A stretch of DNA of 64,000 nt from a virus: positions 1-64,000 of IMG/VR virus record IMGVR_UViG_3300028412_000004. One strand, given 5' to 3'. The translations under genes and the position numbers were made by a program. The notes under the pieces were generated by a model. The model made no database searches, was not told the origin of the DNA, and was given only the letters and a program-made list of their open reading frames with translations. Each line of letters opens with the position of its first letter. Position 1 is the first letter of the stretch. Of the stretch, positions 33,126-60,306 are shown in pieces.

Positions 33126-33210
33126 GCCCTACCGCAGACCTCATATAGGCGGGTGCAAAAATACCCGTTGTTGCGTTATATAGAAATAGGAGAACCGCCA
33201 CATCTCCATC

Positions 33211-37080: not shown

Positions 37081-40035
37081 ATGCCACTGGGTATTAAAGA
37101 CAACGTCATTCAAGATGTTCTGGAAGAAGATGTAGACGTAGAGTTCACCAACTCGAATAAATTCTTTGGGTCGCACGCTAATCTGGTCCCGCTACAGTCG
37201 GCTGTGGCAGCCCCGCGTATATTCTACGGATCCCGCTTCATGAACCAAGCCCTCCCACTTATAGGAGCAGAGGCTCCTTTAGTGCAGAATCTCAACAGTG
37301 ACGATGAGCAGGGTCGCTCGTTCGACGAGCTGCAAGGCCGCGCGTCCGGCGCAGTGTTCTCGGACAGCGATGGACGTGTGAAGGATATTACGCCGGACTA
37401 CATCACCCTCGAAACTCCCGACGGTAAAGAGGTTCGTAGAAACCTCTACAACAACTTTATTTTCAACCGGAAAACTTCCATACATAACACGCCTCTAGTA
37501 GAGCTGGGGCAGTCGGTGAAAGCAGGACAGCTTTTAGCTAAGTCAAACTTCACAGATGATAAAGGCACGCTAGCGATGGGTCGTAATGCTCGCGTAGGCG
37601 TGGTTCCCTACAAAGGCTTCACAATGGATGACTCGATCGCAATTAGCAGCGACTTCGCCGGGAAGCTGTCTAGTGAGCATACCGAGACCTACAGCTTGGA
37701 GAAGGACAAAGTTATTAAAAGCGGCCTAAACCACTTCATCAGCCTGTTCCCGGATAAATACACCAAAGCGCAGAGAGCCACTATAACGCCCGACGGTGTT
37801 GTTAAAAAAGGTACTATCTTACAGGAGGGAGATCCTATGATACTCGCCTCTAAACCTCGTATGGTATCCAGCTCCGCCTCTCAGATGGGTAAGTTGTCGA
37901 AGGTCATGCGGGAGTCCCGCACAGATGCCAGCCAGCTGTGGGAATCCTCGAAGCCTGGTAAGGTGTTGGATGTCGTCAACACGCCCAAAGGTATTAAAGT
38001 TGTTGTACAGTCGATTAAACCTGCAGAGGAAGGTGATAAGATAGTCTACCGCTCCGGTCAGAAAGGGATCATATCTAAGATTATCCCAAACGAGCACATG
38101 CCTCGCACCACTGATGGTAAGCCTCTAGAGGTGCTGCTTAATCCACTCAGCATACCCAGTCGCGTGAACAACTCGATCATCTACGAGATTCTTTTAGGAA
38201 AGATCGCGCAGAAGACTGGTAAACCTATCAAGATGCCTGGCTTCACAAAACCTGGAGAAGAATGGTTCGACATCATACAGCGTGCTCTTGATGAAGCAGG
38301 TCTATCTGACACAGAGGAAGTATTTGATCCAATGTCAGGTAAGACACTGCAGAACCCGATCACCGTCGGCAACGGCTATGTCTTAAAGCTGCACCACACC
38401 GGTGCGTCGAAAGCATCCGCGAGAGGACAAGGAAGTTACTGCTACGACGAAGAAACTGAAGTACTCACTGACACAGGTTGGACAGCGTGGCCTGCTGTAA
38501 ACGCATCTCACAAATTGGCAACTCTCGACGATAGTGACAGTATTGTATTCCAGAAGCCTTCTGAACTCATAGCACAGGACTACTCAGGTGAGATGTATGG
38601 GTTCAAGGAGAGTAATTACATAGACTACCTAGTTACACCAGAACACGACCACTGGGTTAAGTTCCGCGGACCCGTATCTGAATACAGGAGGGTGAAAGCT
38701 AAGGATCTACACGGTAAAATGTTTTATGTAAAGCGGCAGGGCTTTAAATACACAGGAGGAGTAGATCCTAAGAGTACCACCATCCTGGAAGACGGACACG
38801 TCGAGCCTATAAAATTCGACTGGGGCGACTATGTTGAATTCATGGGTTGGTGGCTTACGGAAGGGTCTGTGCGTTTAAATGAGAACACCTCAGAGAATGA
38901 GGTCTACATACGGCAGAGCAAGCACACCAGTGAAGCTAACTTTTACAGAATCCAAAAACTTCTGGATCGTGTGGGCATCGCATACAGGGTCCACACAAAC
39001 AAAGAAAAGCAGAGTTTGGGATTCTGTATGAGCAGTAAGGCGCTGGCTCGACATCTTAAAGAATCCTGCGGTGGATCCGAGTGTGGTAATAAATCCATCA
39101 CACACACACTACTACACGCCTCGTATGCTAGTAGGATGCTTCTATACAATGTCATGATGCTGGGCGATGGTTGTCTAAGCACAGGAGTATACACCACATC
39201 ATCTAAAGCTCTCATAGACACTTTCCAGATCCTGGTAACAGGCTTGGGCTGGTCCGCAGTACCGCACTGCAGGGAAGTAAGGCCGACGACAGATGGCCCT
39301 GTATCGAACCCGGTCTACGAGACTACTACGTCGAAGAAGCGCGCTAACGCGCTGATACAGCAAGCACCTAGATACTCTGGAAAATTTTACACGAAACACT
39401 ACGAAGGTAGAATATATTGCGCAGTCATGGGAGGACGTGGATTACTCTACGTGCGTAGGTGTGGTAAGCCAATGTGGTCCGGTAACTCGCTCGACCAGCA
39501 GCCACTCAAAGGTGGTAGTGAAGGAGGTAAGGCTAAACGCTTCTCCGGGCTAGAGGTCGGCTCAATGCTGTCGGCCGGTGCCTACAAAACTTTACGGGAG
39601 GGCTCCACACTTCGCGGACAGCAGAATGACGAGTATTGGAGGCAGCTACGCCAGGGTAAAACACCCAGACGCCCCGGTGAACCTTTTGTTTGGCGTAAGT
39701 TCCAGACCTTGTTACAGGGCGCTGGTATGAATCCTCGCGACATGGGCGGAGGACAATTACGACTAGGCCCGCTCACCGAGACAGAGCTGCAAAAACGCAA
39801 ACCTTTCGAAATACGCAATGGGAAGATGGTTAACCTAAACTCGCTGGAACCTGAAGCTGGCGGGTTGTTTGACCCCGCTTTGGTAGGGTCTGGTAAGTGG
39901 GGCAAGATTCCGCTCGACATGGCTCTACCAAACCCTGCTTTCGAAAAACCTATACTGCGTTTACTGGGACTTACTCAGAAAGATTTCAACGCTATCATGG
40001 CTGGCGAAATGGAATTACCAGAGCGGTTGCGATAA
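37081..40035 (+). CDS. rpoB: RNA polymerase beta C-terminal half fused to beta-prime N-terminus, with intein
   Basis: GDKIVYRSGQKGIISKI, LNPLSIPSRVN, YVLKLHH, QPLKGG; then beta-prime-like EPEAGGLFDP...GKIPL. Confidence 0.93.
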   Translation: MPLGIKDNVIQDVLEEDVDVEFTNSNKFFGSHANLVPLQSAVAAPRIFYGSRFMNQALPLIGAEAPLVQNLNSDDEQGRSFDELQGRASGAVFSDSDGRVKDITPDYITLETPDGKEVRRNLYNNFIFNRKTSIHNTPLVELGQSVKAGQLLAKSNFTDDKGTLAMGRNARVGVVPYKGFTMDDSIAISSDFAGKLSSEHTETYSLEKDKVIKSGLNHFISLFPDKYTKAQRATITPDGVVKKGTILQEGDPMILASKPRMVSSSASQMGKLSKVMRESRTDASQLWESSKPGKVLDVVNTPKGIKVVVQSIKPAEEGDKIVYRSGQKGIISKIIPNEHMPRTTDGKPLEVLLNPLSIPSRVNNSIIYEILLGKIAQKTGKPIKMPGFTKPGEEWFDIIQRALDEAGLSDTEEVFDPMSGKTLQNPITVGNGYVLKLHHTGASKASARGQGSYCYDEETEVLTDTGWTAWPAVNASHKLATLDDSDSIVFQKPSELIAQDYSGEMYGFKESNYIDYLVTPEHDHWVKFRGPVSEYRRVKAKDLHGKMFYVKRQGFKYTGGVDPKSTTILEDGHVEPIKFDWGDYVEFMGWWLTEGSVRLNENTSENEVYIRQSKHTSEANFYRIQKLLDRVGIAYRVHTNKEKQSLGFCMSSKALARHLKESCGGSECGNKSITHTLLHASYASRMLLYNVMMLGDGCLSTGVYTTSSKALIDTFQILVTGLGWSAVPHCREVRPTTDGPVSNPVYETTTSKKRANALIQQAPRYSGKFYTKHYEGRIYCAVMGGRGLLYVRRCGKPMWSGNSLDQQPLKGGSEGGKAKRFSGLEVGSMLSAGAYKTLREGSTLRGQQNDEYWRQLRQGKTPRRPGEPFVWRKFQTLLQGAGMNPRDMGGGQLRLGPLTETELQKRKPFEIRNGKMVNLNSLEPEAGGLFDPALVGSGKWGKIPLDMALPNPAFEKPILRLLGLTQKDFNAIMAGEMELPERLR
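38440..39486 (+). mobile_element. intein with LAGLIDADG endonuclease (residues 454-802)
   Basis: C1 CYDEETEVLT; blocks GWWLTEGS and MMLGDG; ends SGN then Ser; inserted at GSY|SL. Confidence 0.9.
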
Positions 40036-40105
40036 GCTCCAAGGATTGGATTTTCATACATCCTCGGAAATACGCAAAAACGAGTGTTTTCAGGTTATAT
40101 AAAAA

Positions 40106-40345
40106 TGTAGAGTAGTGGTTCTATCTACACCACTTTGTTGGAACATGACCTGTGTGTGTTCCTAAAGCCCGCGCCGACCTCCTTACACGTCACACTGTAG
40201 TGGTTTGGATTGATTCTCTATTCCATTAGGGAGGTCGGCGTCTGGTAATTTTAAACCCTCCTCGGGTTAATAGAGGGTAGCAATCCGTAAAGCTACGTTC
40301 TGAGATTTCACTCAGATGGTTCTAACTCTCCCTGTCGGAGAGTCC
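40106..40345 (+). ncRNA. candidate structured RNA
   Basis: At least seven consecutive hairpins, including CGCCGACCTCC/GGAGGTCGGCG, TCTGAG/CTCAGA, ACTCTCC/GGAGAGT. Confidence 0.45.
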
Positions 40346-40404
40346 ACTCACCTATAATCAATGGTGCTGACAAAAAAGATCGGAAAAAGGAGCTAAGCAA
40401 AACT

Positions 40405-40797
40405 ATGAAAAAAGGAATCAAAAAAGCTGGCCGCATGGCCACATCCGCAGTAATCACATCCTCTGCTTTCACAGGTAAATACCTGTGTTTAGGGCTCGCC
40501 GCCCCGCTGACTCTGATCTCCGCCACGGCGGAGCTCGGGCGGAAGCCCCTAAAAAAGGGCCAGGCAAGCTGCACGGAGGTGCTCGACCTCACAGAGGTCG
40601 AACGCTCGGAGGTGCGAATCATCCGCGCGAAGGCGCGGCTGATTCGCGCTAACGAGCGCCTCGAGTGCGCGAAGCACCGCGCCCTCGAGGTAGAAGCAGC
40701 GCGTGAGCAACGCGCTGCTGCGCGTGAGCAGCGCGCAGCAGCAAAGGAGGCAGTAGCGGCTAACGCCGCAACTGTCGGCGATCTCGTCAACGCCTAA
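40405..40797 (+). CDS. Ala/Arg-rich coiled-coil protein
   Basis: AACTATG start; AREQRAA x2; own terminator. Confidence 0.55.
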   Translation: MKKGIKKAGRMATSAVITSSAFTGKYLCLGLAAPLTLISATAELGRKPLKKGQASCTEVLDLTEVERSEVRIIRAKARLIRANERLECAKHRALEVEAAREQRAAAREQRAAAKEAVAANAATVGDLVNA

Positions 40798-40804
40798 CCT
40801 ACAC

Positions 40805-40850
40805 AGGAAAGTGGTGGAGGGCTTCGGCCTTCCACCACTTTCCTTTTTTT
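40805..40850 (+). terminator. strong intrinsic terminator
   Basis: 18-bp stem, C(TTCG)G loop, T run. Confidence 0.92.
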
Positions 40851-40906
40851 AGCTATCAGCAGAATTAGGCTTGAAAATTTAAGAGACGCCTGCGAGTTTA
40901 CACCGT

Positions 40907-41581
40907 ATGGATGTGAACGATTTACCTAGGACAGGTATACACAGTGAAGTAGCGAAGCCCTTATCATCAGGGCTTGCGTTGTTCCTCGCCTCTATCGCTA
41001 ACAGTACGGCGCAAAAAACATACCTGGAGGCTGCTCGCGACAAACTTACAGGTTCAGGATTTAAGGACTGGGGAATTCGTAAATTGATTCAAGCGCGCGC
41101 CCTGGCGAACGGTTACATCCCTCATAACGTGGATAAGCCGGAACACTCCGCGATCATGAATTTTAAAAAGCCTAAATCGATCGGTCCGTTCGAGCTGAAA
41201 GGCGTGCTTGCATCCTCCAAGGATACAGGCCCAGGCGTTATGGCCCACGAGATGGGTCACATACTGCAGAATACTCACCTCCCGACATACTCCCTTTCGC
41301 AACAGGCCCCGTCTTTAGGTACGCTAGGCGTAGCACTACTTCCCGGCAGGCGTGCGAAGTTAACATCTGCAATAGCTGGAGCTGTCGGCGGGCTTCCTAC
41401 ACTAGGTTACGAAGTAGATGCCTCGCGTAGAGGCAGTAACATCTTAGAGAGCTTGGGTTACGACAGCCCAGGCACGGCGTATGTCGGAGTCCCAACTTAC
41501 GCCCTCAATGTGGGTATGCCACTGGGTGCTTACGGCATACGGCAGGCTGTACTCAAAGCATTGACCAAAGGCCGGGCTTAG
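40907..41581 (+). CDS. zinc metallopeptidase-like membrane protein
   Basis: AHEMGH...EVDASRRG. Confidence 0.7.
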   Translation: MDVNDLPRTGIHSEVAKPLSSGLALFLASIANSTAQKTYLEAARDKLTGSGFKDWGIRKLIQARALANGYIPHNVDKPEHSAIMNFKKPKSIGPFELKGVLASSKDTGPGVMAHEMGHILQNTHLPTYSLSQQAPSLGTLGVALLPGRRAKLTSAIAGAVGGLPTLGYEVDASRRGSNILESLGYDSPGTAYVGVPTYALNVGMPLGAYGIRQAVLKALTKGRA

Positions 41582-41595
41582 GGCACACTTCGCAA

Positions 41596-42747
41596 ATGAC
41601 ATCCGTAGATTCAGTAGAAAACGTAGATACGCCTAAACCTAAGCTGACAGGCCCAGCCGCGATTGAGCACGCGCTCACTGGCCTTGATCTTGGTAAATTG
41701 GAGGCGGAGCAGCGCGACATTATTAATAAGAAGCTGGTATCCAAAAGACCTAAGGCTGTGCAGGTGCTTAACGTTCTGGAAGGTCTGAAGCGTAACAACG
41801 TGCAGCCTACTGACTTTCTTATAAAGAACGTCCCTGTGATTCCATCTGAGTTTAGACCGTTCACTGCTATGGGAAACACTTTTGTAGCTGGCGACGCTAA
41901 TGAGCTTTACCGGGACTTAATTGATATGCGAGACGCCCACCGCGAGGAGCGCAGTGTTTTTGGGGATGAGGGTGCAGGGGACTCTAGGATGGGACTCTAT
42001 AACGCGGTTAAAGCGACTTACGGCTACGGAGACCCCGTCAAGACAAAGACCCGGCAGCGCGGTGTGTCAGGGTTTCTTAAAAAGGTAACTGGTAGTAATC
42101 CTAAACATGGTTTTTTCCAGCAGAAGCTTATAGGTAAGACGCAGGATAATGTAGCACGCGGGACCATCGGCGTTAATCCTGACCTCTCCATGGACCAGAT
42201 CGATTTACCTAAAGACATGGCTTGGCGTATGTATGCTCCTTACATTCAACGTAGGCTTGTGCGGGCGGGTGTTGGACCTATGGATGCCATTAAAGGTATT
42301 CGTGATAGAACACCTCTAGCAGAGCGGGCGCTGCAGAAAGAGGTCGAGGAGCGACCGGTTATTTACTCTCGATCGCCAAGCTGGCATAAATACAACGTGC
42401 TCGCAGGACGTCCTAATCTGATCGACGGGGATGCTATCCGTATTAATCCATTCGTAACAACAGGTTTAAATGCTGACTTCGACGGCGATGCCATTAATGT
42501 GCACGTCCCTAGTGAAAGCGAGGTGGTAAAAGAAGCTCTAGAAAAGCTGGCACCTTCAAAACAACTCCTGTCTACGCGAGATCCTACGAGGGTTGTTCCT
42601 TCCTTAAAGCACGAACAGATACTCGGGCTCTACACGGCGAAGCACCGCAAAGGGAACAAGTTTCAATTTTCATCCAAGGAGGCGGCGCTGGCTGCTATCA
42701 AACGAGGTGAAGTATCTCTCAACGATGACATCGCTATAATGAGTTAA
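41596..42747 (+). CDS. rpoC: RNA polymerase beta-prime catalytic segment
   Basis: VPVIPSEFRP, DANELYR, SRSPSWH, NADFDGD. Confidence 0.96.
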   Translation: MTSVDSVENVDTPKPKLTGPAAIEHALTGLDLGKLEAEQRDIINKKLVSKRPKAVQVLNVLEGLKRNNVQPTDFLIKNVPVIPSEFRPFTAMGNTFVAGDANELYRDLIDMRDAHREERSVFGDEGAGDSRMGLYNAVKATYGYGDPVKTKTRQRGVSGFLKKVTGSNPKHGFFQQKLIGKTQDNVARGTIGVNPDLSMDQIDLPKDMAWRMYAPYIQRRLVRAGVGPMDAIKGIRDRTPLAERALQKEVEERPVIYSRSPSWHKYNVLAGRPNLIDGDAIRINPFVTTGLNADFDGDAINVHVPSESEVVKEALEKLAPSKQLLSTRDPTRVVPSLKHEQILGLYTAKHRKGNKFQFSSKEAALAAIKRGEVSLNDDIAIMS

Positions 42748-42797
42748 TCTAGCAGTCTACGCTTGCATACTTAGAGGTGTTATTTTTCAATGTAAGT

Positions 42798-43337
42798 ATG
42801 ACCACTAGCATATACTCCTCTGAAAAAGCTCTTAACCTTTTAGCGAATCTATCTTCGTTTAACAAACGCGCATTTCAACCGGCTCCGCCGCCGCAGGGCG
42901 CGATGCCTCCTGGTGTGGATCCCTCAATGATGCCCCCTGGTGCGATGCCTCCTGGTGTGGATCCCTCAATGATGCCTCCTGGTATGGATCCCTCGATGAT
43001 GCCTCCTGGAGCGATGCCCCCTGGCGCGATGCCTCCTGGTGCGATGCCCCCTGGCGCGATGCCTCCTGGTGCGATGCCTCCTGGTGCGATGCCTCCTGGT
43101 ATGGATCCCTCGATGATGCCTCCTGGAGCGATGCCTCCACAGCCTGCTGGCGTTAACCCAGAAATAGAAACCATGCTCAGTGAAGTGTTGGGCGGCATGG
43201 AGCAGATGGCATTGGTGTTGGAGCAGGAAAAAGCCGAGAAGGCTGAAATGGCACAGCGTCTTGAGAGTATGTCTTCACGAATGAATCAACTGGAATCTTT
43301 TTTTAAACAATCGGACAGCGCTCCAGCAGGAGTTTAA
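42798..43337 (+). CDS. Pro/Gly/Met-rich low-complexity protein
   Basis: KRAF then (PPGAM)n and (PPGMDPSMM)n, coiled-coil end. Confidence 0.75.
   Translation: MTTSIYSSEKALNLLANLSSFNKRAFQPAPPPQGAMPPGVDPSMMPPGAMPPGVDPSMMPPGMDPSMMPPGAMPPGAMPPGAMPPGAMPPGAMPPGAMPPGMDPSMMPPGAMPPQPAGVNPEIETMLSEVLGGMEQMALVLEQEKAEKAEMAQRLESMSSRMNQLESFFKQSDSAPAGV
42901..43137 (+). repeat. 15/27-nt tandem repeats (ATGCCTCCTGGTGCG family)
   Basis: Seen directly. Confidence 0.95.
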
Positions 43338-43339
43338 TT

Positions 43340-43552
43340 ATGATTAGAATGCGTAAAACAGATGGCACTTTTGTCACACTGAGAGATGAATTCAAGTTTG
43401 TGGAGCTATGCGACTTGGACGGTAACATAGGAGAACTTCTGCTAGATCAAGACGATGGAAGTATTCAACGTGTGTCGGCAGACAGTCCGGAGGCCAAGCG
43501 CTACGCGAGCCTCTTCGGAGTTGATTTCTGCGAGATGAAACAATTAGATTAA
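43340..43552 (+). CDS. hypothetical protein
   Basis: 70-aa ORF. Confidence 0.65.
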   Translation: MIRMRKTDGTFVTLRDEFKFVELCDLDGNIGELLLDQDDGSIQRVSADSPEAKRYASLFGVDFCEMKQLD

Positions 43553-43576
43553 CAACACAGCAACGGTAGAACTGAG

Positions 43577-44173
43577 ATGCACCACTTCATAGTAGTATCA
43601 GGCTTCACGCAGAAGAAATGGGCGAAGCACGGCAACGGCAGTATAAACATATACCGCAACGTCCGTGACATCCTCAAGGGTGTAGGTAATATTGAGTTCG
43701 CGCTACTAGAGTGGCACAACGACCCGGAAGGGTATGCCAGGTTCGTAGCGCAGCACTACGTGTCGGGTGATACAATCGTGTTAGCGGGTTACAGCTATGG
43801 GGGCGGTTACTGGGCGCGTGAATTTCTTAAGACTCTTAAGAGTATAGCACCTCACATCAAAGTGAATACCGTCATATTGTGTGACCCTGTATATCGTCAC
43901 CCGTTCTTCTTAATGAGATTTCTTGCATTGTTCTCAATCAAACTCAAAATTAATTTTGGGAATGTAGATAACCTTGTGCATTTTTTCCAGACTAAGGATA
44001 AGCCGGGTAACAATTCTTTGATACTCGACGAAGGTGTTAATTATGCCGGACCATGTGAGCTTGACTATCATCATGTGAAGATGGATAACTCGGTGGAGTA
44101 TCACGACGCGGTATTAGAAGCTGCGGTTAAGCATTTCCTAGAAGAAAAGAGAGAACACCATTGTGAAGTTTAA
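43577..44173 (+). CDS. alpha/beta hydrolase
   Basis: GYSYGGG nucleophile elbow, LCDPV, late His. Confidence 0.75.
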   Translation: MHHFIVVSGFTQKKWAKHGNGSINIYRNVRDILKGVGNIEFALLEWHNDPEGYARFVAQHYVSGDTIVLAGYSYGGGYWAREFLKTLKSIAPHIKVNTVILCDPVYRHPFFLMRFLALFSIKLKINFGNVDNLVHFFQTKDKPGNNSLILDEGVNYAGPCELDYHHVKMDNSVEYHDAVLEAAVKHFLEEKREHHCEV

Positions 44174-44450
44174 ACTGCTAATACTTACAGCGCTATGCGG
44201 CGTGGCGTTCCTGTCCGGATGCCAAAGCGTTACTGTTAACATTTACCTCCTGCCTGAAGGGGAGGAAGATTCCCCAGGGGTGCATCTTGCAGACTTGGAG
44301 GAGTTAGGAGCCAAGTTATCTGGGGTCAGAGTGAATCAGTCTATGTACAAGGCAAACGCCGGCGTAGGTAACTGGTTGGATCAAGATACAGACGCGTCTG
44401 CCACAATTCCCGCCTCCATTCTAGGGGGCCCTCAAAACGTAAGAAAATAA
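44163..44450 (+). CDS. lipoprotein
   Basis: Signal peptide with lipobox LSGC. Confidence 0.7.
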   Translation: MKFKLLILTALCGVAFLSGCQSVTVNIYLLPEGEEDSPGVHLADLEELGAKLSGVRVNQSMYKANAGVGNWLDQDTDASATIPASILGGPQNVRK

Positions 44451-44455
44451 AAACC

Positions 44456-45118
44456 ATGAAATCAGTAAAAATAAACATGCTATTAGCTCTACTCACTGGG
44501 CTAGTATTCGGGTGTACCACTATACAAAACAACCCCATCATAGCGAAAGGTGTTATTCAATACGGCGCCTACGAGCTATTCGAAGCCTCCGACGACAGTA
44601 TCAGGAGTGCGGAAAACGTGCTGGATATTTCGAAGAAGTTGGCGGACTCCAGCGCCGAAGCTGTTACCGTGAAGGTTCTGGCAGACCTGGCGCGTGCCGA
44701 GGTAGCTAAAAAGAATCTGACTCCCGAACGACAAGCCGCGGCTGATGTTTTTATCACGGCTATTAAGGATCAGATCGATAAACGTATTGCGGCGAACTTC
44801 TTAAGCCCGGAGGACCTTGTTACTATTAATCAGGTATTCGTATGGACTCGAGAAGCTGCGGAGCTTTATCTAGCGTCTCGCGAAAAGACTATGGAGGCTG
44901 CACGAGTGCCGGCACTCGCGGTGTCTGCTGAACAGACTTCCGTGTATCAAGCACCATTATGGGCGCATTGGAAATACGGGGAGCATTGGTCTGACTCTCT
45001 GTGGGATACCACTTCTTGGTTCTCAGGTTGTGATAGTTACGCAAGCTTCCGCGCATTTCACAGCTACGGACTGACCGATGCAGAGCGGAGTGCCTTTGCT
45101 CAACAAACTGCTAAGTAA
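44456..45118 (+). CDS. lipoprotein
   Basis: Signal peptide with lipobox VFGC; helical body. Confidence 0.7.
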   Translation: MKSVKINMLLALLTGLVFGCTTIQNNPIIAKGVIQYGAYELFEASDDSIRSAENVLDISKKLADSSAEAVTVKVLADLARAEVAKKNLTPERQAAADVFITAIKDQIDKRIAANFLSPEDLVTINQVFVWTREAAELYLASREKTMEAARVPALAVSAEQTSVYQAPLWAHWKYGEHWSDSLWDTTSWFSGCDSYASFRAFHSYGLTDAERSAFAQQTAK

Positions 45119-45387
45119 TGAAAATAACAGCACTCTACTTACTAGCAGCGCTGTTACTTGTCGGCGGTTGCGTTAATCCTGGAAATCGCGCAGGTACGCT
45201 ACCGCCGACTCCGGCAGAAGTTTACGCTTCTACTGGATGGCAGGCCAACACTGTCACTGCGCTGGCCTTCGACCTTAGGGAAGATGGCAAGTTTGACTAC
45301 GTATGGGCGGAGGACGTCCCGCAAGACCTCCGACACAAGCTCGAACTCAGAGCCATACACCTGAATAAAAACTGGGACGGAGAATAA
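45118..45387 (+). CDS. lipoprotein
   Basis: Signal peptide with lipobox VGGC. Confidence 0.7.
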   Translation: MKITALYLLAALLLVGGCVNPGNRAGTLPPTPAEVYASTGWQANTVTALAFDLREDGKFDYVWAEDVPQDLRHKLELRAIHLNKNWDGE

Positions 45388-45393
45388 TTACTA

Positions 45394-46212
45394 ATGCCTA
45401 AGCTCAAGAGATCACACAACCTTTACTTAAAATCCAGGGCCTTAGTGGGTATGCCTCCACTGCCCGAAGAGAAGTTGGGGCTTAAAGGTCCGGACCCTGT
45501 GGACGTTAATGACTTTATACGAGAGCCTGCCGGCGATCGGTTAACGCCCATAAACCTACTGGATACCTACCCGGTACCTGTAATGGACCAGGGACGCACC
45601 AACCGCTGCGGGCCTTACTCCGGGGTTAGTGGGATGTCCATATTGATGCAGAAAGCCACGACGGAACGTACGCCTATGAGCGTGAACGACCTGTATAGGT
45701 TTTGCAGCAGAGACATCACAGTGGACGAGGGTGTTTATATGCGCGACCTTATGGCGGGTATGGCCGAGCACGGGGCCCTGCCAGAAAGAATGTGGCCTAA
45801 CCATAGAAGGTTCGACGAACTTCCGAAAGGTCTAGACGAAACCCACGCCTGGGACCCTATGCGATTTCGCATACGCGGCGGTTACTGGCGTATACGTGAT
45901 GCAAAAGACGCTGCTCATATTCTTTCCGCAGAGCAGTTACCAATCTGGGTTGGGTGCACTCTTTACAAGAACGTGGTCGACGCGGCTATGTATGACGGCG
46001 TGTTTAAGATGCCCTCCCCGCGAGACACGATTATAGGAGGTCATGCTATGTTGGTGGTAGGGTGGTTATACAAGAACGGCGTGCGTTACTTCATCCTACT
46101 CAATTCCTGGGGATACAACGTAGGCTTACGTGGACTTTTCCTAATGCCGGACTCTTATGTGGACGAGAATATCTGTACCGACCTATGGACAGTGGCTAGA
46201 GACATGTTTTAG
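45394..46212 (+). CDS. papain-like (C1) cysteine peptidase
   Basis: QGRTNRC, GGHAMLVVGW, LNSWG. Confidence 0.9.
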   Translation: MPKLKRSHNLYLKSRALVGMPPLPEEKLGLKGPDPVDVNDFIREPAGDRLTPINLLDTYPVPVMDQGRTNRCGPYSGVSGMSILMQKATTERTPMSVNDLYRFCSRDITVDEGVYMRDLMAGMAEHGALPERMWPNHRRFDELPKGLDETHAWDPMRFRIRGGYWRIRDAKDAAHILSAEQLPIWVGCTLYKNVVDAAMYDGVFKMPSPRDTIIGGHAMLVVGWLYKNGVRYFILLNSWGYNVGLRGLFLMPDSYVDENICTDLWTVARDMF

Positions 46213-46225
46213 TAAAATAGTACCG

Positions 46226-46255
46226 TTGACACTTTAGCGGTTTAACCAATAACAT
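46226..46255 (+). promoter_or_regulatory. sigma70-like promoter
   Basis: TTGACA-18 nt-TAACAT. Confidence 0.4.
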
Positions 46256-46267
46256 ACTTGCTAAATT

Positions 46268-46837
46268 ATGACACCTGAAGAACGCAAAGACCTCGCTAAG
46301 GATTTCCACGAAATAGCCCGAGCCACTGTTAGTCAAAGCAAACGCCCTTGGTGGTTGAGTTGGGGTATCCCATTGCTTGTACTAGGGCTTTTGGGATGGT
46401 TTACCAACGAGATGTACCAGAACCTTAAGGACGGGCAGAATGCTACAATGCAGTCTCAGAAAGAAGCTTCGCAAACGAATGCTGCGCAGAATGAATCCCT
46501 CGCAGTCACGGCGCGAGTCCTGCAAGGGCTTCAAAAGGATATTACAGAAACAAGAGCCTACACTAAAGAAGAATCCCTAGCTCTGCGACAGGAGATACAA
46601 GCGGCTAGAGCTGATCCGTGGACCGCAACAGACGACGCCCAAACTCGTAGAGACATGCATGATTTAGTCGAACGCGGGAATATCGTCCTACAAACACAGA
46701 TCGGGAGGCACAGCGATATCTTAGATAAACACGCAGTCCGACTAGACCGACTAGACAACTTCAACACAAGCACCCGGATAAACACAGAGCGTATTAACGG
46801 AAAGTTAAACACACTCTTAGAAAACATTAAAAATTAA
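46268..46837 (+). CDS. single-TM coiled-coil protein (holin- or spanin-like, uncertain)
   Basis: WWLSWGIPLLVLGLLGWF then long heptads. Confidence 0.55.
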   Translation: MTPEERKDLAKDFHEIARATVSQSKRPWWLSWGIPLLVLGLLGWFTNEMYQNLKDGQNATMQSQKEASQTNAAQNESLAVTARVLQGLQKDITETRAYTKEESLALRQEIQAARADPWTATDDAQTRRDMHDLVERGNIVLQTQIGRHSDILDKHAVRLDRLDNFNTSTRINTERINGKLNTLLENIKN

Positions 46838-46862
46838 TGCCGCTGCCAGCACCCATAACAAT

Positions 46863-47060
46863 ATGTTTGGAAGACAAATAGCTTTTGCAATATTTAGGAC
46901 CGCATTTAGACCTATCGCGGAGCCTGCTGCTGGGCGCAATGTCCCTGTTTTTGACAACGACCCGTCTACCTACACAGACACTGGCTGGATTTTAGCTTAT
47001 GGATCTTGGGATGACTCAAAGGTGTGGATGGATTCAGAAACTTTCAACACAAACCCTTAA
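46863..47060 (+). CDS. hypothetical protein
   Basis: 65-aa ORF. Confidence 0.5.
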   Translation: MFGRQIAFAIFRTAFRPIAEPAAGRNVPVFDNDPSTYTDTGWILAYGSWDDSKVWMDSETFNTNP

Positions 47061-47158
47061 AATGAACACCGCAGCACTTTCCTACCAGTTTGGAGTCCTT
47101 GAGACTTTTAATAAGTTGTTGCTTAAATAGACTTATTCTACTTTAACACCTAAACATT

Positions 47159-48229
47159 ATGATCGAAGATATTGAAAATGGAGAATCCGGCGCAGTCGTC
47201 CGGGGTAAACTGAATGCCGCTTTAGCTGAAATCAATAACCTCGGCACCGCCGCGCTGCTCGACACTGGTAGCGGGATTGGGGAAGTAATCATCTCTGAAG
47301 CTACAGCACCCGTCACCCTGCAGCCCGTCGTATGGGGAGCAGCAGGAGGTGTTGATCAATCGACGTTCCCAGAGTTTCTTAGTAATCTGAACGCCGCCCG
47401 AGGCGTAGATCTGCTCGATGAGAATACTGGATTCACTCAGGCACAAATTCAAGCATCCGAGGCAGTCATCCAGGACGAGTTGACCGCCCTCGACGCCGCG
47501 ATCACGCAGACGGATGCCGACACTGTAGCGGCACTTGCGCTCAAGCAAGACATACTGGCAGAAGGCGCGTTCGTGGATGGCGATAAGGACAAACTGGATG
47601 CCGCTTTCGCCAATCAACTTAACCTCACCCTCTTAGTAGGTGCAGCAGACGCAGTGACAGGCTTCGCTCTGGATGCTATTCCTGATTATTGGAAAAGCGG
47701 CGTAACCACGATCACCGCTGCTCATATCGGAAACAGCGTAACGAGCATCGGCAGCTCCGCATTCTACAGCTGCACTGCCCTAACCTCCGTCACTATCGGA
47801 AACAGCGTCACAACCATCGGCAGCTCCGCATTCTACTCCTGCACTGCCCTAACCCCCATCACCATCCCAGACAGCGTCACAACCATCGACAGCTACGCAT
47901 TCCATTACTGCACTGCCCTAACCTCCATCACCATCCCAGACAGCGTAACGAGCATCGGCATGTCCGCATTCGGCTTGTCTGGTCTAACCTCCATCACCAT
48001 CCCAGACAGCGTCACAACCATCGGCAGCTACGCATTCCAATACTGCACTAGCTTAACATCCATCACCATAACAAGCGTGCCTGCCGCCGCTTGGACAGGA
48101 ACAAACGGGCTTTTAAGCACAACATTACTTACCGACATCAATATCACGGCAGATGTGTTCGCTCAGTATGACGGGGCATGGCGCACCGCTCAAAGCGTTG
48201 ATCCTAGCGTAACCCTCAACTCAATCTAA
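47159..48229 (+). CDS. fibre/adhesin-like protein with BspA-type leucine-rich repeats
   Basis: N-terminal IENGESGAVVRGKLN; five IPDSVTxIGxxAFxxCTxLTSIT repeats. Confidence 0.8.
   Translation: MIEDIENGESGAVVRGKLNAALAEINNLGTAALLDTGSGIGEVIISEATAPVTLQPVVWGAAGGVDQSTFPEFLSNLNAARGVDLLDENTGFTQAQIQASEAVIQDELTALDAAITQTDADTVAALALKQDILAEGAFVDGDKDKLDAAFANQLNLTLLVGAADAVTGFALDAIPDYWKSGVTTITAAHIGNSVTSIGSSAFYSCTALTSVTIGNSVTTIGSSAFYSCTALTPITIPDSVTTIDSYAFHYCTALTSITIPDSVTSIGMSAFGLSGLTSITIPDSVTTIGSYAFQYCTSLTSITITSVPAAAWTGTNGLLSTTLLTDINITADVFAQYDGAWRTAQSVDPSVTLNSI
47726..48068 (+). repeat. 66-69 nt tandem repeats encoding BspA LRRs
   Basis: Seen directly. Confidence 0.9.
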
Positions 48230-48230
48230 T

Positions 48231-49031
48231 ATGGCTAAACAAATACATTATACCAGCGGCTTACCGCGAGCTTGTAGCACACTCCTGCAAAATCTACTTG
48301 CTCAAAATCCTCTTGTTCACGCAACAGCTACGAGTGGGGTGCATGAGATTATGTATCTATCAAAAGCGTTCTTCAAGACGGATGAGTTTCGCACACTCCC
48401 TAATCCCTTGGATGGTGAGAGATTATTTGGCGACTTTATGCGAGCCGGTATTGCCAACTCATTTGAAAGTTTAACAGATCGACCTGTGGTGGTAGATAAG
48501 TGCCGTTCATGGATTGGTAGTGCCAACCTACTGTTTAAGCTCTATCCAGATGCCAAGCTATTAATCCCTGTTCGCGACATTCGTGGGGTTCTCTCAAGCA
48601 TGGAAAAGAAGTTTCAAGCACACCCAGAATTTCAATTGGAGGCGACACAGCAAGACACTGGCCGCATCCAAACTATCGAGGGTCGTTGCCAGTTCTGGCT
48701 AGATAGTGCCCCTGTCGGTATCGCTATTCAACGCCTCCATGAGATAGTCCGACTCCATAAGGACAAGGTTCACTTCGTTCATGCGGAAGACCTCACCAGC
48801 GACCCACAAGGCACGATGAGTCAGGTGTGGGATTACTTAGGTATGGAGCCATTCATCCATAACACAAGCAACGTGGAGCAATACACCACAGAGCACGAAC
48901 TCGGTTTCCCATACGGGGATCACTCAGTTCGCTCCGAAGTTAAGCCACTCAAACCAGATTGGCATGAAACTCTCGGCAGAACATTATCAGAACAAATCAA
49001 CCAAAAATTTAACTGGGTAAACACCTTATGA
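48231..49031 (+). CDS. sulfotransferase family protein
   Basis: 5'-PSB loop GLPRACSTLL; 3'-PB VRDIRGVLSS. Confidence 0.85.
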   Translation: MAKQIHYTSGLPRACSTLLQNLLAQNPLVHATATSGVHEIMYLSKAFFKTDEFRTLPNPLDGERLFGDFMRAGIANSFESLTDRPVVVDKCRSWIGSANLLFKLYPDAKLLIPVRDIRGVLSSMEKKFQAHPEFQLEATQQDTGRIQTIEGRCQFWLDSAPVGIAIQRLHEIVRLHKDKVHFVHAEDLTSDPQGTMSQVWDYLGMEPFIHNTSNVEQYTTEHELGFPYGDHSVRSEVKPLKPDWHETLGRTLSEQINQKFNWVNTL

Positions 49032-49603
49032 AATACGCCATAGTAAACATTGAACGCAGACGCATAAATCGTGTCACAGACGAGACCCCGCAATTTGTCG
49101 GAGAGCAAATGGAAGTCGTTGAGATTACCGACGAACAAGCTGCCGCGATTGCTGCATCAGATACGCCGAGTTTTTTAATCGACGGAGAGCTTAAATCTAT
49201 GCCAGAAGTCATGGCAATCCGCCATGCTGAACGTGAGGCGACGCGTCTCACAGAACTCTACGCAGCAGACCCTGAAGCGGCCAAAGCAGCAAAGATTAAC
49301 CAGCTACGTTCAGCACGCGATGCAGTAGAGTTTGGGGGCATCACCTTTAACGGACTGCCCGTGCAGACCAACATGGTGACTCAGGCGCGATTAACCAGTG
49401 CTCTCTCCCTAGTGGCTCTTAATCCTGCTACAGTAATCAAGTGGGAGTTCCCCGATGGTAGTATTGTCGATCTGGACAAAGCCACCATTGAGGCTCTCGC
49501 AGCAGTGGTGTTCGGTCACGTTCAGCAAACGAGAACAGATTTCGCGGCTGCTAAAGCATTGGTTGAAGCCGCTACGACCACTGGGGAACTGGTAGCGATC
49601 TAA
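49028..49603 (+). CDS. DUF4376 tail-fibre-associated protein
   Basis: LRSARDAVEFGGITFNG...WEFPDGS...HVQ. Confidence 0.75.
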   Translation: MKYAIVNIERRRINRVTDETPQFVGEQMEVVEITDEQAAAIAASDTPSFLIDGELKSMPEVMAIRHAEREATRLTELYAADPEAAKAAKINQLRSARDAVEFGGITFNGLPVQTNMVTQARLTSALSLVALNPATVIKWEFPDGSIVDLDKATIEALAAVVFGHVQQTRTDFAAAKALVEAATTTGELVAI

Positions 49604-49718
49604 CCCTCACACGCTCGCAGCACCGTAGATGTTAGGATTGACTGTAAGAGTGCAGAGGCTTAACTTAAGTTGAACAATAGCAGTGGCGTCGCCGCTGTAA
49701 ACCAACAGCAGCAATATC

Positions 49719-50045
49719 ATGATCCTAAAAAACAACTCCGGTTTAACCACCCTCTTCAAAGACAATACTGAAGCGAATGCCAGCAGCCCGATACTGCCCT
49801 GCAGCTCTTTTGAGATGCACAGCGTGCAAATCGTTAACTCGGGAGGAGAGACGGTTAAGATCATGGGCAGTAACAGCCCTGAGAACACAGATGCTGATAT
49901 CGAGTTCGTGCAGATTGTAACGAACATCGTTGGTAGTGAGATTGTCATACTGGACGGAACCATACGGTGGCTGCGTATAGACCGAGGACCTGGCACAACA
50001 CCCGTAACCGCTTATGTTCTAAGCTCCGCTCTTAACGTCGGATAA
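49719..50045 (+). CDS. hypothetical beta-rich protein
   Basis: 108 aa; RWLRI motif. Confidence 0.55.
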   Translation: MILKNNSGLTTLFKDNTEANASSPILPCSSFEMHSVQIVNSGGETVKIMGSNSPENTDADIEFVQIVTNIVGSEIVILDGTIRWLRIDRGPGTTPVTAYVLSSALNVG

Positions 50046-50055
50046 GAAGGTATCT

Positions 50056-53000
50056 ATGAAAGCGGTTGATCTGCTCATAGACTCACTCCTACCAGAGGAG
50101 CTACAAGGCACGGTAAAAGACATGGACTCCAAGTCATTGGATATCCTGATGTCAGCTATCGCCACCAAATACCCGGATAAATACGAAGCTATCTCTAAGG
50201 GTATCGCCGACGCTGGTAGGAATGCCAGCTATCTACAGGGTGAGACTATCACCCTCAACGACATGCGCACGCCGTTCGACAAGTCGAGCATACTGGCTGC
50301 CATGGACAAAGAGCTGGACCGGGTTAGACAGGCTAATCCGGAGACATTTCCCAAGACCCGAGTAAAGGTTTGGGAGAAGTATAATGACATCATGCAGAAT
50401 ATGACGAGTCAGAGTGCTCGTGAGAAGAACAATAATTTAGCCTACAGTGTCGTCTCCGGTGCGCGTGGTAAGCCTGCTCAACTTAAAGCTATGCTGGCTA
50501 CACCAGGCTACTACGCCGATTATAAGGGCGACACCATTCCCCTGTTCGTCCGTAACAGCTTCGGCCAGGGACTACGCCCTGCAGAGTTCCTTGCAGGCAC
50601 TTACGGCGCGCGGACTTCCGTCTTGTCGACAAAGAACTCCACCGCCCGTGGTGGGGATTTCGCAAAGCAGCTTGGGCAGAGTGCCGCTTCCACCATTGTG
50701 ACGATGTTGGATTGCGGTGTTAAAAATGGCATAGATCTGGAGCTGGAAGATAGTTCAATGCGCGGGCGTGTGCTGGCAAGAAGCACCGCAGGGGTGCCGG
50801 CCGGTACCATACTGGACAAGCACGCGCTCGGACAACTTCGTAGAAGTAAATCGGATACGGCCGTAGTGCGATCCCCCTTAACCTGTCAGGCTAGGGAAGG
50901 TGTGTGTGCTAAGTGTGTAGGCCAGTTCCACAACAACAAGCTCCCCTCGGTGGGAGATGCTGTAGGTATTACGGCCGCGCAATCGATCTCCGAACCAGTT
51001 ACGCAAGGCGCTCTGAACTGTTTAGCAGAGAACACCGAAGTTCTCATGGGCGACTTTTCCTATAAAAAAATCCAAGACGTCAGAGTTGGGGACATGGTAA
51101 TGGGGGCGGACGTCGAAGCACACTTATTCCCGGTAAAGGTAACACATACATGGGATCAAGGTTTACAGCCCGTCCAGACGTATGGTTACAAGCTGGGGCA
51201 GACGAAGGATATCCGGGAGGTTGTTTGCACAGAGGAGCACAAAATTTTACAGATTACGACCTACAGTAACGCAAAAGAGGGAAAGTTTAATTTCACCCCC
51301 AGGATACTTAAAGCAGGACGCCCCGCTGGGTTACCTTCCGCCGTATTACCCTCTGGGTTCAAAGAAGGTGTAGGAATTGAGGAGGATTTCGCCACGCTTT
51401 ATGGGTTCCACCTGGGAGACGGCATCCGCTTGAGTCCAGAGTGTTTACAAGCCTCCGTGTGTGTTTCTTGCGCTTGCTCCGAGACAGCAGCCGATCTTAA
51501 AACAGAGATGGCTAAGTTGGGCCTCACGATGAAGAAACGTAAGCGTAGCCACGACTGGGCTGTGTCGGATCTACAGAAAGGAACTAGTCTTGTAGACGCT
51601 AAGGGGCAGTTCGAGAAAGGTTTCCATAATCGTTATAAGCTGCTGCTCCAATCATTAGGGGCTTTGCATGAATGCTACCACAATAAAGTAATAGCACCTG
51701 TGGTTTGGGAGTGGGATAACAAGTCTATCGCCAAAATGATTGCCGGGTTTGTGTCCGCGGACGGATCTGTATACAGAGTCAAGGAATTGACACCAGGTGT
51801 GTCTTTTGGATCTACGGCGCTGTCGATGCTGGAAGAGTTGAAGCGCTTACTTGAATTAAGGTTTGGCATCTACAGCACACAACTCACACGAACGTCCCTA
51901 GCCTCTAAGAGCGAAACAAGGAAGCACGACGGCTGGCAATTCTGTATCACACGCCGAGATCAGCTTAAAAAGTTCAACGAACTCATAGCACCATTTATAC
52001 CAGGCCCTAAAAGAGAAAAACTGAGACAATACCTAGAGGAGGCTCCAAAGTCTCACTACGAGACGTCCACTTTCTATAAAGGCCGCCGTATTTACGCCGA
52101 ACCCAAAGGTATGACGCAGTGCTACGACATAACCGTGGACCACAAGGATCATTTGTTCGTGTTAAGAAATGGCTTAATTGTAAGCAACTCCAAGCACACT
52201 GGCGGTATGGCTTCCGGTAAGCGTGAGTATTCTGGCTTCGACGTCATCAATCAACTCGTCCAATCCCCCGAGGTGTTCCCCGACCGCGCCACCGTCGCAC
52301 ATGAGGCCGGTCGCGTGGAGTCCATCACAGAAGCCCCGCAGGGTGGTTTCTACATTAAACTAAATGGGAAGGACCTATACGTACCCGCTGGTTACGACGT
52401 CACTGCAAAGGTCGGTGATAAGGTGGAGGCTGGCGACCAACTCTCCGACGGTATTGTCGACCCTGAGGACATCATGAAGTTGAGAGGGCTGGGGTCCGGT
52501 CGCCGGTATTATGCCGAGCGTCTTAATAAGGCTTTGACCGATTCAGGTATGGCCGTCGATCGTCGCAACGTGGAGCTCGTATCTAGAGGAGCGTTCGATC
52601 ATGTGAAGATACAGGACGACGAGGGTATGCCAGGCTACCTCCCGGACGACGTAGTTAGTTACAATAAACTCACATCACATGCAGCTCCTGCGAAGGACGC
52701 GAAAGGCATGCGCCCGAGTCAGGCTGTGGGTAAGTTCCTGGCGACGCCAGCGCTGCACTACTCGATAGGTACTAAAATCACACCTCGAATGGCAGATAGG
52801 TTAGAGAAGTCTCACTACGATAGCATCTACACCTCCGATAGGGAGCCTAGTTTTACACCACAGTCAGTACGGCTACGCACTGCTGCGCACAGTAATCCTG
52901 ACTGGCTCGCATCCATGGCCACTTCTTACTTGAAAACTCAGCTAGAGCATGCTGCAATACGGGGAGACGATACCAATGTTAACTCAAACGTGCACTTCGG

Positions 53001-53061
53001 ACCTCGTCTAGCAAGAGGGACAGAGTTCGGCAAGGATGTCGCAACAACAGGTAAATTTTAA
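50056..53061 (+). CDS. rpoC: RNA polymerase beta-prime C-terminal segment with intein
   Basis: SGARG, bridge helix GART...TARGG, DCG, RSPLTC...C..C, trigger loop AAQSISEPVTQ|...HTGG. Confidence 0.93.
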   Translation: MKAVDLLIDSLLPEELQGTVKDMDSKSLDILMSAIATKYPDKYEAISKGIADAGRNASYLQGETITLNDMRTPFDKSSILAAMDKELDRVRQANPETFPKTRVKVWEKYNDIMQNMTSQSAREKNNNLAYSVVSGARGKPAQLKAMLATPGYYADYKGDTIPLFVRNSFGQGLRPAEFLAGTYGARTSVLSTKNSTARGGDFAKQLGQSAASTIVTMLDCGVKNGIDLELEDSSMRGRVLARSTAGVPAGTILDKHALGQLRRSKSDTAVVRSPLTCQAREGVCAKCVGQFHNNKLPSVGDAVGITAAQSISEPVTQGALNCLAENTEVLMGDFSYKKIQDVRVGDMVMGADVEAHLFPVKVTHTWDQGLQPVQTYGYKLGQTKDIREVVCTEEHKILQITTYSNAKEGKFNFTPRILKAGRPAGLPSAVLPSGFKEGVGIEEDFATLYGFHLGDGIRLSPECLQASVCVSCACSETAADLKTEMAKLGLTMKKRKRSHDWAVSDLQKGTSLVDAKGQFEKGFHNRYKLLLQSLGALHECYHNKVIAPVVWEWDNKSIAKMIAGFVSADGSVYRVKELTPGVSFGSTALSMLEELKRLLELRFGIYSTQLTRTSLASKSETRKHDGWQFCITRRDQLKKFNELIAPFIPGPKREKLRQYLEEAPKSHYETSTFYKGRRIYAEPKGMTQCYDITVDHKDHLFVLRNGLIVSNSKHTGGMASGKREYSGFDVINQLVQSPEVFPDRATVAHEAGRVESITEAPQGGFYIKLNGKDLYVPAGYDVTAKVGDKVEAGDQLSDGIVDPEDIMKLRGLGSGRRYYAERLNKALTDSGMAVDRRNVELVSRGAFDHVKIQDDEGMPGYLPDDVVSYNKLTSHAAPAKDAKGMRPSQAVGKFLATPALHYSIGTKITPRMADRLEKSHYDSIYTSDREPSFTPQSVRLRTAAHSNPDWLASMATSYLKTQLEHAAIRGDDTNVNSNVHFGPRLARGTEFGKDVATTGKF
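51019..52188 (+). mobile_element. intein with LAGLIDADG endonuclease (residues 322-711)
   Basis: CLAENTEV; GFHLGDG and GFVSADGS; YDITVDHKDHLF...VSN then Ser. Confidence 0.92.
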
Positions 53062-54226: not shown

Positions 54227-54270
54227 GTTAAGCATTGCCGACAAGCTTACACTAGTATTAAACATTGAAT

Positions 54271-56505: not shown

Positions 56506-56508
56506 GTT

Positions 56509-60300: not shown

Positions 60301-60306
60301 AGCATT

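Follow-up and report, generated by a model that had tools for sequence, protein, structure and literature searches.

The 64,000-bp window analyzed here (bases 1-64000 of the 125,531-bp linear IMG/VR record IMGVR_UViG_3300028412_000004, hereafter G000, from a large uncultured phage and rated 66% complete by CheckV) contains three genes encoding pieces of a bacterial-type multisubunit RNA polymerase (RNAP). The gene for chain 1 (37081-40035) encodes a 984-residue precursor, the gene for chain 2 (41596-42747) a 383-residue protein, and the gene for chain 3 (50056-53061) a 1001-residue precursor; every gene in the polymerase region is on the plus strand. Matches to the Pfam families Rpb2_6, Rpb1_2 and Rpb1_5 and alignment with the Escherichia coli subunits confirmed that the three chains lie where an earlier reading of the DNA letters, referred to here as the original prediction, had placed them. 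The partition of the polymerase described in that prediction was also correct. However, two LAGLIDADG inteins had been overlooked, and these account for 739 of the 2368 residues of the three precursors. Without them, the mature chains are 635, 383 and 611 amino acids long.

Chain 1 consists of the C-terminal half of the β subunit, an intein, and the C terminus of β joined to the N terminus of β′. The N-extein (residues 1-453; 37081-38439) corresponds to approximately E. coli β 633-1251. Residues 128-453 matched Pfam Rpb2_6 with an E value of 1.2e-53, and BLASTP against RpoB of strain MG1655 placed residue 16 at β 648 and extended to β 1336, with RpoB 1048-1336 included in the alignment. The N-extein contains the catalytic barrel region of β, with the equivalents of H1237 and K1242, and a profile search matched solved β chains with an E value of 3e-71. 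The stop-to-stop frame of chain 1 extends just 5 codons upstream of the gene, and therefore no β N-terminal half is hidden in frame. The top database matches covered 97-100% of the query and shared an identical start.

The open reading frame (ORF) immediately upstream of chain 1 (34793-37057) was considered as a diverged N-terminal half of β and rejected. The predicted 754-residue protein is of low complexity, has no Pfam or PHROG match, and adjoins chain 1 in relatives that carry true β N-terminal genes elsewhere. It is rich in Ala, Gly, Pro, Asn and Met, has a coiled-coil middle, and ends 24 nucleotides 5′ of chain 1. Its position is kept in relatives of the same sub-clade, with a 740-residue protein at locus L010 and matches at L014, L015, L019 and L027. 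It may belong to the virion interior or serve in ejection.

The C-extein of chain 1 (residues 803-984 plus the stop codon; 39487-40035) comprises the equivalents of β 1252-1342 followed by approximately residues 9-100 of β′. Since BLASTP did not detect β′ in the tail of chain 1, a profile was built from an alignment of ten homologues with chains 1 and 2 joined in one protein (alignment A2) and was searched against solved structures. This profile matched β chains over positions 10-540 and the β′ chains of Streptomyces and Mycobacterium, from their residue 9, at positions 545 through 1117. Chain 1 ends near position 640 of A2, and therefore its last ~95 residues correspond to β′ ~9-100. The junction between β and β′ falls near precursor residues 887-893, and the β′ part begins at about nucleotide 39740-39757. 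Independent support came from the cultured Salmonella phage Arash, in which the Pfam Rpb1_1 match of gp206 (residues 1022-1260) overlaps the stretch aligned to the C-extein of chain 1 (gp206 928-1104). Thus, the covalent link between the C terminus of β and the N terminus of β′ is present in the C-extein, and chain 1 runs from a start in mid-β into β′ as had been predicted. Cysteines are absent from the exteins of chain 1 and from chain 2; the N-terminal zinc ribbon of β′ is therefore missing.

Chain 2 has its own gene, 1.56 kb past that of chain 1, and spans approximately β′ 150-548, which includes the clamp and the catalytic barrel. It matched Pfam Rpb1_2 (E 3e-20) and Rpb1_1 (E 2.7e-5), and BLASTP aligned its residues 4-346 to RpoC 166-511 with an E value of 1e-37. 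The catalytic motif NADFDGD of the predicted barrel was found at residues 292-298 (nucleotides 42469-42489), aligned to β′ 458-464. Chain 3 begins 7.3 kb past chain 2 and matched Pfam Rpb1_5 (E 2.8e-16). Its N-extein (residues 1-321; 50056-51018) corresponds to approximately β′ 580-933 and contains the bridge helix, which starts at residue 171 (nucleotide 50566), zinc site II and the first helix of the trigger loop. Its C-extein (residues 712-1001 plus the stop codon; 52189-53061) contains the trigger-loop histidine motif SKHTGG and the C-terminal module of β′. After removal of the intein, the trigger-loop motif EPVTQGALN-SKHTGG is regained, and BLASTP with the spliced chain matched RpoC 628-939 and 1180-1285; the assignment of the bridge helix, trigger loop and C terminus to a chain lying 7 kb farther on was therefore upheld. 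The exteins of chain 3 contain exactly four cysteines (residues 220, 277, 284 and 287), in the arrangement of zinc site II; the lineage-specific insertion SI3 is absent. The end of chain 2 aligned to residue 1524 of the 1525 residues of Arash gp206, and the start of chain 3 to residue 11 of Arash gp216 (tblastn). The cut in β′ thus falls between the catalytic barrel and the bridge helix, at approximately β′ 550-580.

Intein 1 (chain 1 residues 454-802, 349 residues; 38440-39486) lies between the equivalents of β Y1251 and S1252, 14 residues after the equivalent of H1237. The junction reads GQGSY|C...WSGN|SLDQQPLKG, where 11 intein-free homologues read GQGGYDxxQQPLKGG, and the predicted splicing residues are C454, TPEH, N802 and S803. 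Intein 1 matched Pfam LAGLIDADG_3 at 31 bits. When intein 1 was aligned with nine of its homologues from relatives (alignment A3), C1, T66, H69, E141-G142, G244 and N349 were invariant, and G242 and D243 nearly so. An AlphaFold2 model built from this alignment had a predicted local distance difference test score (pLDDT) of 88.9 and a predicted template modeling score (pTM) of 0.88. The best matches of the model in the PDB, as found by Foldseek, were the PhoVMA, TliVMA, PI-SceI and PI-PfuI inteins (E 4e-15 to 1e-7), and I-DmoI matched its endonuclease part. Intein 2 (chain 3 residues 322-711, 390 residues; 51019-52188) interrupts β′ between the counterparts of R933 and T934, two residues ahead of the counterpart of the trigger-loop H936. 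Its junction reads EPVTQGALN|CLAENTEV...LIVSN|SKHTGG, with C322, TEEH, N711 and S712 as the predicted splicing residues, and it matched Hom_end_hint (34.6 bits), LAGLIDADG_3 (50 bits) and the NCBIfam model TIGR01443 intein_Cterm (21.4 bits), all above cut-off. By their in-frame position relative to intein-free homologues, splicing residues and the Hint and endonuclease matches, both inserts are assigned to the class 1 LAGLIDADG inteins. Because they lie within catalytic elements, the first next to the active-site region of β and the second inside the trigger loop, the enzyme would be inactive until they are excised.

Both inteins are allelic with inteins of relatives. Among the best 119 homologues of chain 3, 87 were intein-free (~613 residues) and 32 carried inserts, ~21 of them at the trigger-loop site and ~13 near residue 193, in the bridge-helix region; the junction EPxTQxAL[NS]|CL, with an intein, was identical in at least 10 chain 3 homologues. 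Among the best 119 homologues of chain 1, 9 had an insert at the site of intein 1 and 7 had one near residues 113-132. One intein family occupies at least five different sites of these RNAP genes across relatives. At locus L012:16441-19056 (IMGVR_UViG_3300019360_000102), the match to chain 2 covers residues 15-300, is interrupted by a gap of ~1.5 kb just past NADFDGD, and resumes at residues 298-381; the interruption is probably an intein beside the catalytic aspartates. The inteins would be selfish homing elements and no part of the function of the enzyme. LAGLIDADG inteins have been described at the most conserved sites of the active-site cleft in archaeal, eukaryotic and eukaryotic-virus RNAPs, where they similarly need to be excised before folding (Goodwin et al. 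2006, PMC1635734). In contrast, the hosts of the inteins described here are bacterial-type phage chains, and their sites are given on E. coli numbering rather than on the published sites a-d.

The closest described enzymes are those of Arash (gp206 and gp216; OQ632216; PMC10585845) and of the cultured Vibrio phage D69 (VPHD69_0261 and VPHD69_0264; OZ195729), which belong to the same lineage and are 30-34% identical to the chains of G000 over every extein. By tblastn, the 1525-residue gp206 aligned in order to the N-extein of chain 1 (gp206 510-925), its C-extein (928-1104) and chain 2 (1146-1524), and gp216 aligned to both exteins of chain 3, with the C-extein at gp216 residues 333-599. The covalent junction of β with the N-terminal part of β′ and the cut in β′ after the NADFDGD barrel are common to all three phages, and in both Arash and G000 the polymerase genes adjoin a structural module. 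In Arash and D69, all of β and the front of β′ form one chain of 1525-1527 residues that has no inteins. G000 differs from them in two extra cuts, at mid-β and at approximately β′ 100-150, in the genes between the pieces, and in its two inteins; a single ORF of ~1500 residues holding all of β and β′ through NADFDGD is not what is found in this phage. The Arash paper labels its genes β and β′, and its passages on RNA polymerase and sigma do not speak of a fusion (PMC10585845).

The spread of this layout was examined in a protein-database survey, in which the N-extein of chain 1 retrieved 806 proteins at E ≤ 1e-10, and in a locus survey of 43 IMG/VR loci together with Arash and D69. Insert and layout details of the former come from the best 119 proteins: 94 consisted of chain 1 alone, intein-free and ~621-689 residues long (typically ~640), beginning and ending as chain 1 does here; 16 had inserts, and 9 were fused to chain 2. 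In the locus survey, 28 loci had whole β and the front of β′ in one ORF of ~1450-1650 residues, longer where inteins were present, and 13, including the present window, had chain 1 alone. A further locus (L020) had the mid-β start with chains 1 and 2 fused. At L044:8591-16177 (IMGVR_UViG_3300033072_001172), a single frame of 2529 codons matched chain 1, chain 2 and both exteins of chain 3; it would be all of β and all of β′ as one polypeptide. The same partition is held at 45-63% identity across many divergent phages. A scan of viral contigs with a single protein returned no close relatives. The layout is common to hundreds of uncultured phages and standard in a large sub-clade; it is real but not unique to this phage. 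The original prediction had set it apart from the known splits and fusions, and its being standard elsewhere is in part what that prediction had named in advance as counting against it.

A maximum likelihood tree was built from the chain 1 N-extein and rooted with two RpoB sequences from bacteria. In it, the 14 forms with a mid-β start formed one clade with a support of 100 in the Shimodaira-Hasegawa approximate likelihood ratio test (SH-aLRT), so that a single state change explains the trait. The phage clade starts from a polytomy whose remaining branches all have the fused form; the parsimonious history is therefore one fission in a fused ancestor.

Phage-labeled RNAP matches from Acinetobacter, Listeria, Staphylococcus and others were discarded. 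The one record opened, CAKLQF020000005.1 (‘Acinetobacter phage MD-2021a’), is filed as a phage but is a fragment of a bacterial chromosome (tufA-secE-nusG-rplKAJL-rpoBC), and the rest were assumed to be alike. Unannotated ‘phage’ RNAP matches from Listeria, Staphylococcus, Enterococcus and Escherichia may be bacterial as well, and such records inflate phage counts.

The N-terminal half of β, alpha, omega and sigma had been reported as absent from the window, and the searches found none of them there or on the whole 125.5-kb record. For the N-terminal half of β, these searches comprised phrog_24349, Pfam Rpb2_3, tblastn with Arash and with the corresponding ORFs of five relatives, and a local hidden Markov model. 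A lone Rpb2_3 match of 14 bits, in a 59-residue frame on the minus strand (29015-29101), was taken as chance. Four of the five complete relatives have the mid-β split (G001 to G004). In these four, the segments matching phrog_24349 at ~44-219 and ~371-551 belong to different ORFs, located 13-49 kb upstream of chain 1; G001, G003 and G004 yielded both pieces and G002 the second piece alone. The first ORF encodes 500-553 residues and the second 242-259 residues, or 483 with an intein in G001, and the second piece matched Pfam Rpb2_3 above cut-off. The region 37-125 kb of G000 is collinear with 92.6-201 kb and then 3.6-13.4 kb of G001, in which the β N-terminal genes lie at 43.5-46.2 kb; the corresponding genes of G000 are therefore placed beyond its 3′ end. 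Homologues of the last genes of G000 also lie 7-9 kb upstream of the second β N-terminal gene in G003 and at locus L095. No megablast overlap with G000 was found among 76 loci carrying the second β N-terminal piece. On this synteny, the N-terminal half of β in this phage is probably encoded by an ordinary gene pair just past the 3′ end of the contig. A contig of the same phage in ENA assembly ERZ27315534 (k141_242573, 161,295 bp) extends 36 kb farther.

In the second β N-terminal gene of G001 (L060:1426-2874; G001:45712-47160), a LAGLIDADG intein interrupts the fork domain: the match to Rpb2_3 ends at profile position 52, and Hint and LAGLIDADG_3 matches come next. The intein shares 31-36% identity with intein 1. 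In G004, the first piece is part of a 553-residue ORF (L063:499-2157, minus strand) in which residues 397-512 match the 2′-5′ RNA ligase/LigT phosphoesterase family (E 6e-9); the C-terminal part of this ORF also has a weaker match to Acb1, which counters the cyclic-oligonucleotide-based antiphage signaling system (anti-CBASS).

Sigma regions 2 and 4, alpha (PF01000) and omega (PF01192) had no match on the 125.5-kb record. A search of the five complete relatives for alpha (PF01000) found none. This polymerase might use host subunits. Sigma-70 region 2 was found above the Pfam cut-off in three of the five complete relatives and weakly in a fourth. On G000, 27.5 kb past the window (G000:91551-92270; L085:1551-2270), a 239-residue protein with a C-terminal helix-turn-helix gave a weak match to Sigma70_r3 (17 bits) and shares 40% identity with a protein of G003 whose own match to this family, at 32 bits, is above cut-off. 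It is a candidate promoter-recognition factor, offered as a lead only. The original prediction had looked for such a factor among the unknown genes next to the polymerase; with sigma-70 region 2 in the relatives, annotated sigma factors in Arash, and no transcription-factor signal in family searches of the neighboring ORFs, it is probably not there. In purified Arash virions, Gp206 was the most detected protein (3516 spectra), Gp216 gave 1210 spectra and the sigma-like Gp10 was present, as given in the virion proteomics of that paper (PMC10585845). By analogy with Arash, virion packaging of the enzyme and early transcription by it are plausible. Of the earlier description of a compact, possibly virion-packaged polymerase, the second part therefore stands as plausible, and the first is doubtful because the enzyme of the relatives is made from at least five genes.

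In cells, bacterial RNAPs normally have intact β and β′ subunits on an alpha-dimer platform. Individual features of the present layout have cellular counterparts: the cyanobacterial and plastid rpoC1-rpoC2 split, after the catalytic barrel of β′, resembles that between chains 2 and 3, archaeal B″/B′ resembles the mid-β cut, and rpoB-rpoC of Helicobacter and Wolbachia is a covalent fusion of β with β′. Cellular enzymes with split or fused RNAP genes keep alpha and omega, and we know of no cellular enzyme that combines a mid-β cut, a fused β/β′ junction and two cuts in β′. As had been recognized in the original prediction, the fusion of half of β with the N-terminal part of β′ also differs from the clean splits of phiKZ/AR9-type phages and from whole rpoB-rpoC fusions. 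The phiKZ/AR9 enzymes are likewise alpha-free, with β and β′ split over scattered loci and one of the sets virion-packaged. As described in PMC7824862, they have clean splits with no β/β′ fusion, lack sigma, and are judged to be early-branching and not derived from cellular homologues; relatives of the present phage carry sigma-70 genes. The chains of G000, in contrast, match solved bacterial β and β′ with E values of 1e-58 to 1e-71.

The mReC phages (Weinheimer & Aylward 2020, PMC7481178) are uncultured tailed phages of ~100-300 kb whose β and β′ were found with COG0085 and COG0086 and are likewise cell-like. The entries seen in the mReC supplement have separate, adjacent β (1011-1364 residues) and β′ (904-1004 residues) genes, unlike this phage, and a contig from the same sample as locus L021, with a β match of 1056 residues and probably of the present sub-clade, is listed there outside the mReC cluster (PMC7481178). 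In the main text of the paper, ‘fused’ is applied to crAssphage alone, and the terms ‘split’, ‘intein’, ‘sigma’ and ‘virion’ do not appear. The clade of this phage probably does not belong to mReC. Reviews of jumbo phages cover phiKZ/AR9-type enzymes only. No description of the fused layout or of its inteins was found in the literature searched, most subscription journals being outside the search.

Collectively, these data make it very likely that the three genes encode the catalytic core of the phage's own bacterial-type multisubunit RNAP, of the lineage of Arash and D69 and of a derived, re-cut sub-clade within it, with splicing, assembly, use of sigma and packaging as its predicted properties. 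The homology of the chains, their boundaries, the intact catalytic motifs, the anatomy of the inteins and the spread of the layout are seen directly in the sequences. In the model that we propose, the usual form of the lineage would be a chain of ~1525 residues, comprising β and the front of β′ through NADFDGD, plus a chain of ~606 residues for the back of β′. In the derived sub-clade, the long chain would have been cut near β 633 and near β′ 100-150; since these two cuts flank the boundary of β with β′, the piece that bridges it is the 635-residue chain 1. The front of β would be supplied by genes elsewhere, two in the relatives. Chains 1 and 3 are each predicted to excise a LAGLIDADG intein by protein splicing after translation, and the spliced chains would assemble with chain 2 and the proteins of the N-terminal half of β without an alpha dimer. 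Promoter recognition would be by a phage protein of the sigma-70 family, and the enzyme, if the proteomics of Arash is a guide, would be packaged in the virion and transcribe early genes.

Several observations weigh against parts of this model. The base of the tree is unresolved, and the fused form as the ancestral state is a parsimony inference that is unproven. With its fused chains 1 and 2, L020 falls within the split clade at unstarred support, and therefore the cut between chains 1 and 2 would have been made more than once or reversed. The penultimate histidine of block G is absent from intein 1 (WSGN), from intein 2 (IVSN) and from all ten members of A3. Absence of this histidine is a known and tolerated variation of inteins that can slow splicing. 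The N-terminal half of β was not seen in this phage, the contig being 66% complete, and no clear sigma gene is present on the contig, the 17-bit Sigma70_r3 candidate being the best. Finally, packaging rests on one distant cultured relative, ~32-34% identical, whose authors caution, in the virion analysis of that paper, that abundant proteins may co-purify with virions (PMC10585845).

It is this last point that gives some room to a different role for the enzyme, in which it would be made after infection as a middle or late polymerase and left unpackaged, with early transcription carried out by the host polymerase. The packaging evidence stems from Arash, to which the caution about co-purification applies, and G000 and the five complete relatives each have one set of polymerase genes, where phiKZ-type phages keep separate virion and non-virion sets. 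Set against this are the spectral counts of Gp206 and Gp216 in purified Arash virions and the position of the chain 3 gene, which lies directly upstream of homologous structural genes here and in Arash (gp218, gp221 and gp222). On balance, we regard a solely post-infection role as unlikely, but as the most serious of the competing explanations.

Much less credible are two readings of the broken gene itself. Chains 1 and 2 might be rejoined, through excision of 40036-41595 as an intron or through a trans-acting split intein: the two parts form a single ORF in most relatives outside the sub-clade, and the genome carries two self-splicing elements in the form of its inteins. However, 40036-41595 had no match to any Rfam intron family, even at E ≤ 1, and this spacer has a promoter-like motif of its own, two ORFs and a strong terminator. 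The ends of the chains (..ELPERLR and MTSVDS..) are without intein motifs, chain 1 ends alike (..ELPEHLR) in the consensus of 11 intein-free homologues, and in relatives the interval between chains 1 and 2 holds unrelated inserts of 0.6 to ~14 kb. We consider rejoining very improbable. Equally hard to sustain is the view that the pieces are decayed, non-functional remnants broken by mobile elements. A fragmented gene, two selfish elements and the lack of the N-terminal half of β on the contig would fit decay, but the three frames are open over their full length, NADFDGD, the bridge helix, the trigger-loop histidine and zinc site II are intact, and the inteins retain their splicing residues. 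Moreover, the partition has been kept at 45-63% identity across divergent phages, which points to purifying selection. The catalytic core of a phage RNAP, cut into separate chains, is the reading that we prefer.

If the three genes encode such a core, the same catalytic core tolerates a cut in mid-β, two cuts in β′ and a covalent link across the boundary of the two subunits, with no alpha gene in five complete relatives. We tentatively suggest, while thinking it rather doubtful, that the bridge between β and β′ formed by the 635-residue chain 1 replaces the role of the alpha dimer in assembly, which would make this an alpha- and omega-free, zinc-ribbon-less polymerase that self-assembles from at least five chains. 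If so, it would be a natural minimal scaffold for the study of multisubunit RNAP assembly. A cultured relative, Arash, appears to package homologous chains, which brings assembly, promoter recognition and packaging within reach of laboratory work. The lineage is also naturally dense in inteins that interrupt catalytic sites, such as the trigger loop, the region of the bridge helix and, probably, a site beside NADFDGD in relatives. They are of use for studies of intein homing and for annotation pipelines, which now label the pieces ‘beta’ or ‘hypothetical’. The gain from the present window is modest: a five-piece variant and two mapped intein sites.

The cassette between chains 1 and 2 (40036-41595) contains, in order, the promoter-like motif, a 130-residue ORF (40405-40797), a very strong intrinsic-terminator-like hairpin and a 224-residue ORF with an HExxH motif (40907-41581). 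The motif, GCAAAAA..N..GTTATATA[A/G]AAAT, was found at 40074-40112 and again at 33155-33193. The hairpin (40805-40844, followed by a T-run to 40850) directly follows the 130-residue ORF and has an 18-bp stem with 10 G-C pairs. The HExxH ORF precedes chain 2 and gave a weak match to Pfam M48 (E 0.0016, below cut-off). Between chains 2 and 3 (42777-50045) lie thirteen ORFs, among them a papain-like peptidase, a leucine-rich repeat protein, a sulfotransferase and DUF4376 tail-fibre-like proteins; none of the thirteen matched an RNA polymerase family. For the 396-residue ORF after chain 3, Protein Atlas gave nothing usable. The homologues of Arash gp218, gp221 and gp222 follow at 54265-61815.

Both copies of the promoter-like motif precede gene islands of non-structural appearance, and that at 40074 is followed by a leader of ~290 nucleotides before the 130-residue ORF. 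Upstream of the polymerase region, two tRNA genes were found at 15518-15590 and 22462-22534 (Rfam tRNA, 72-73 bits).

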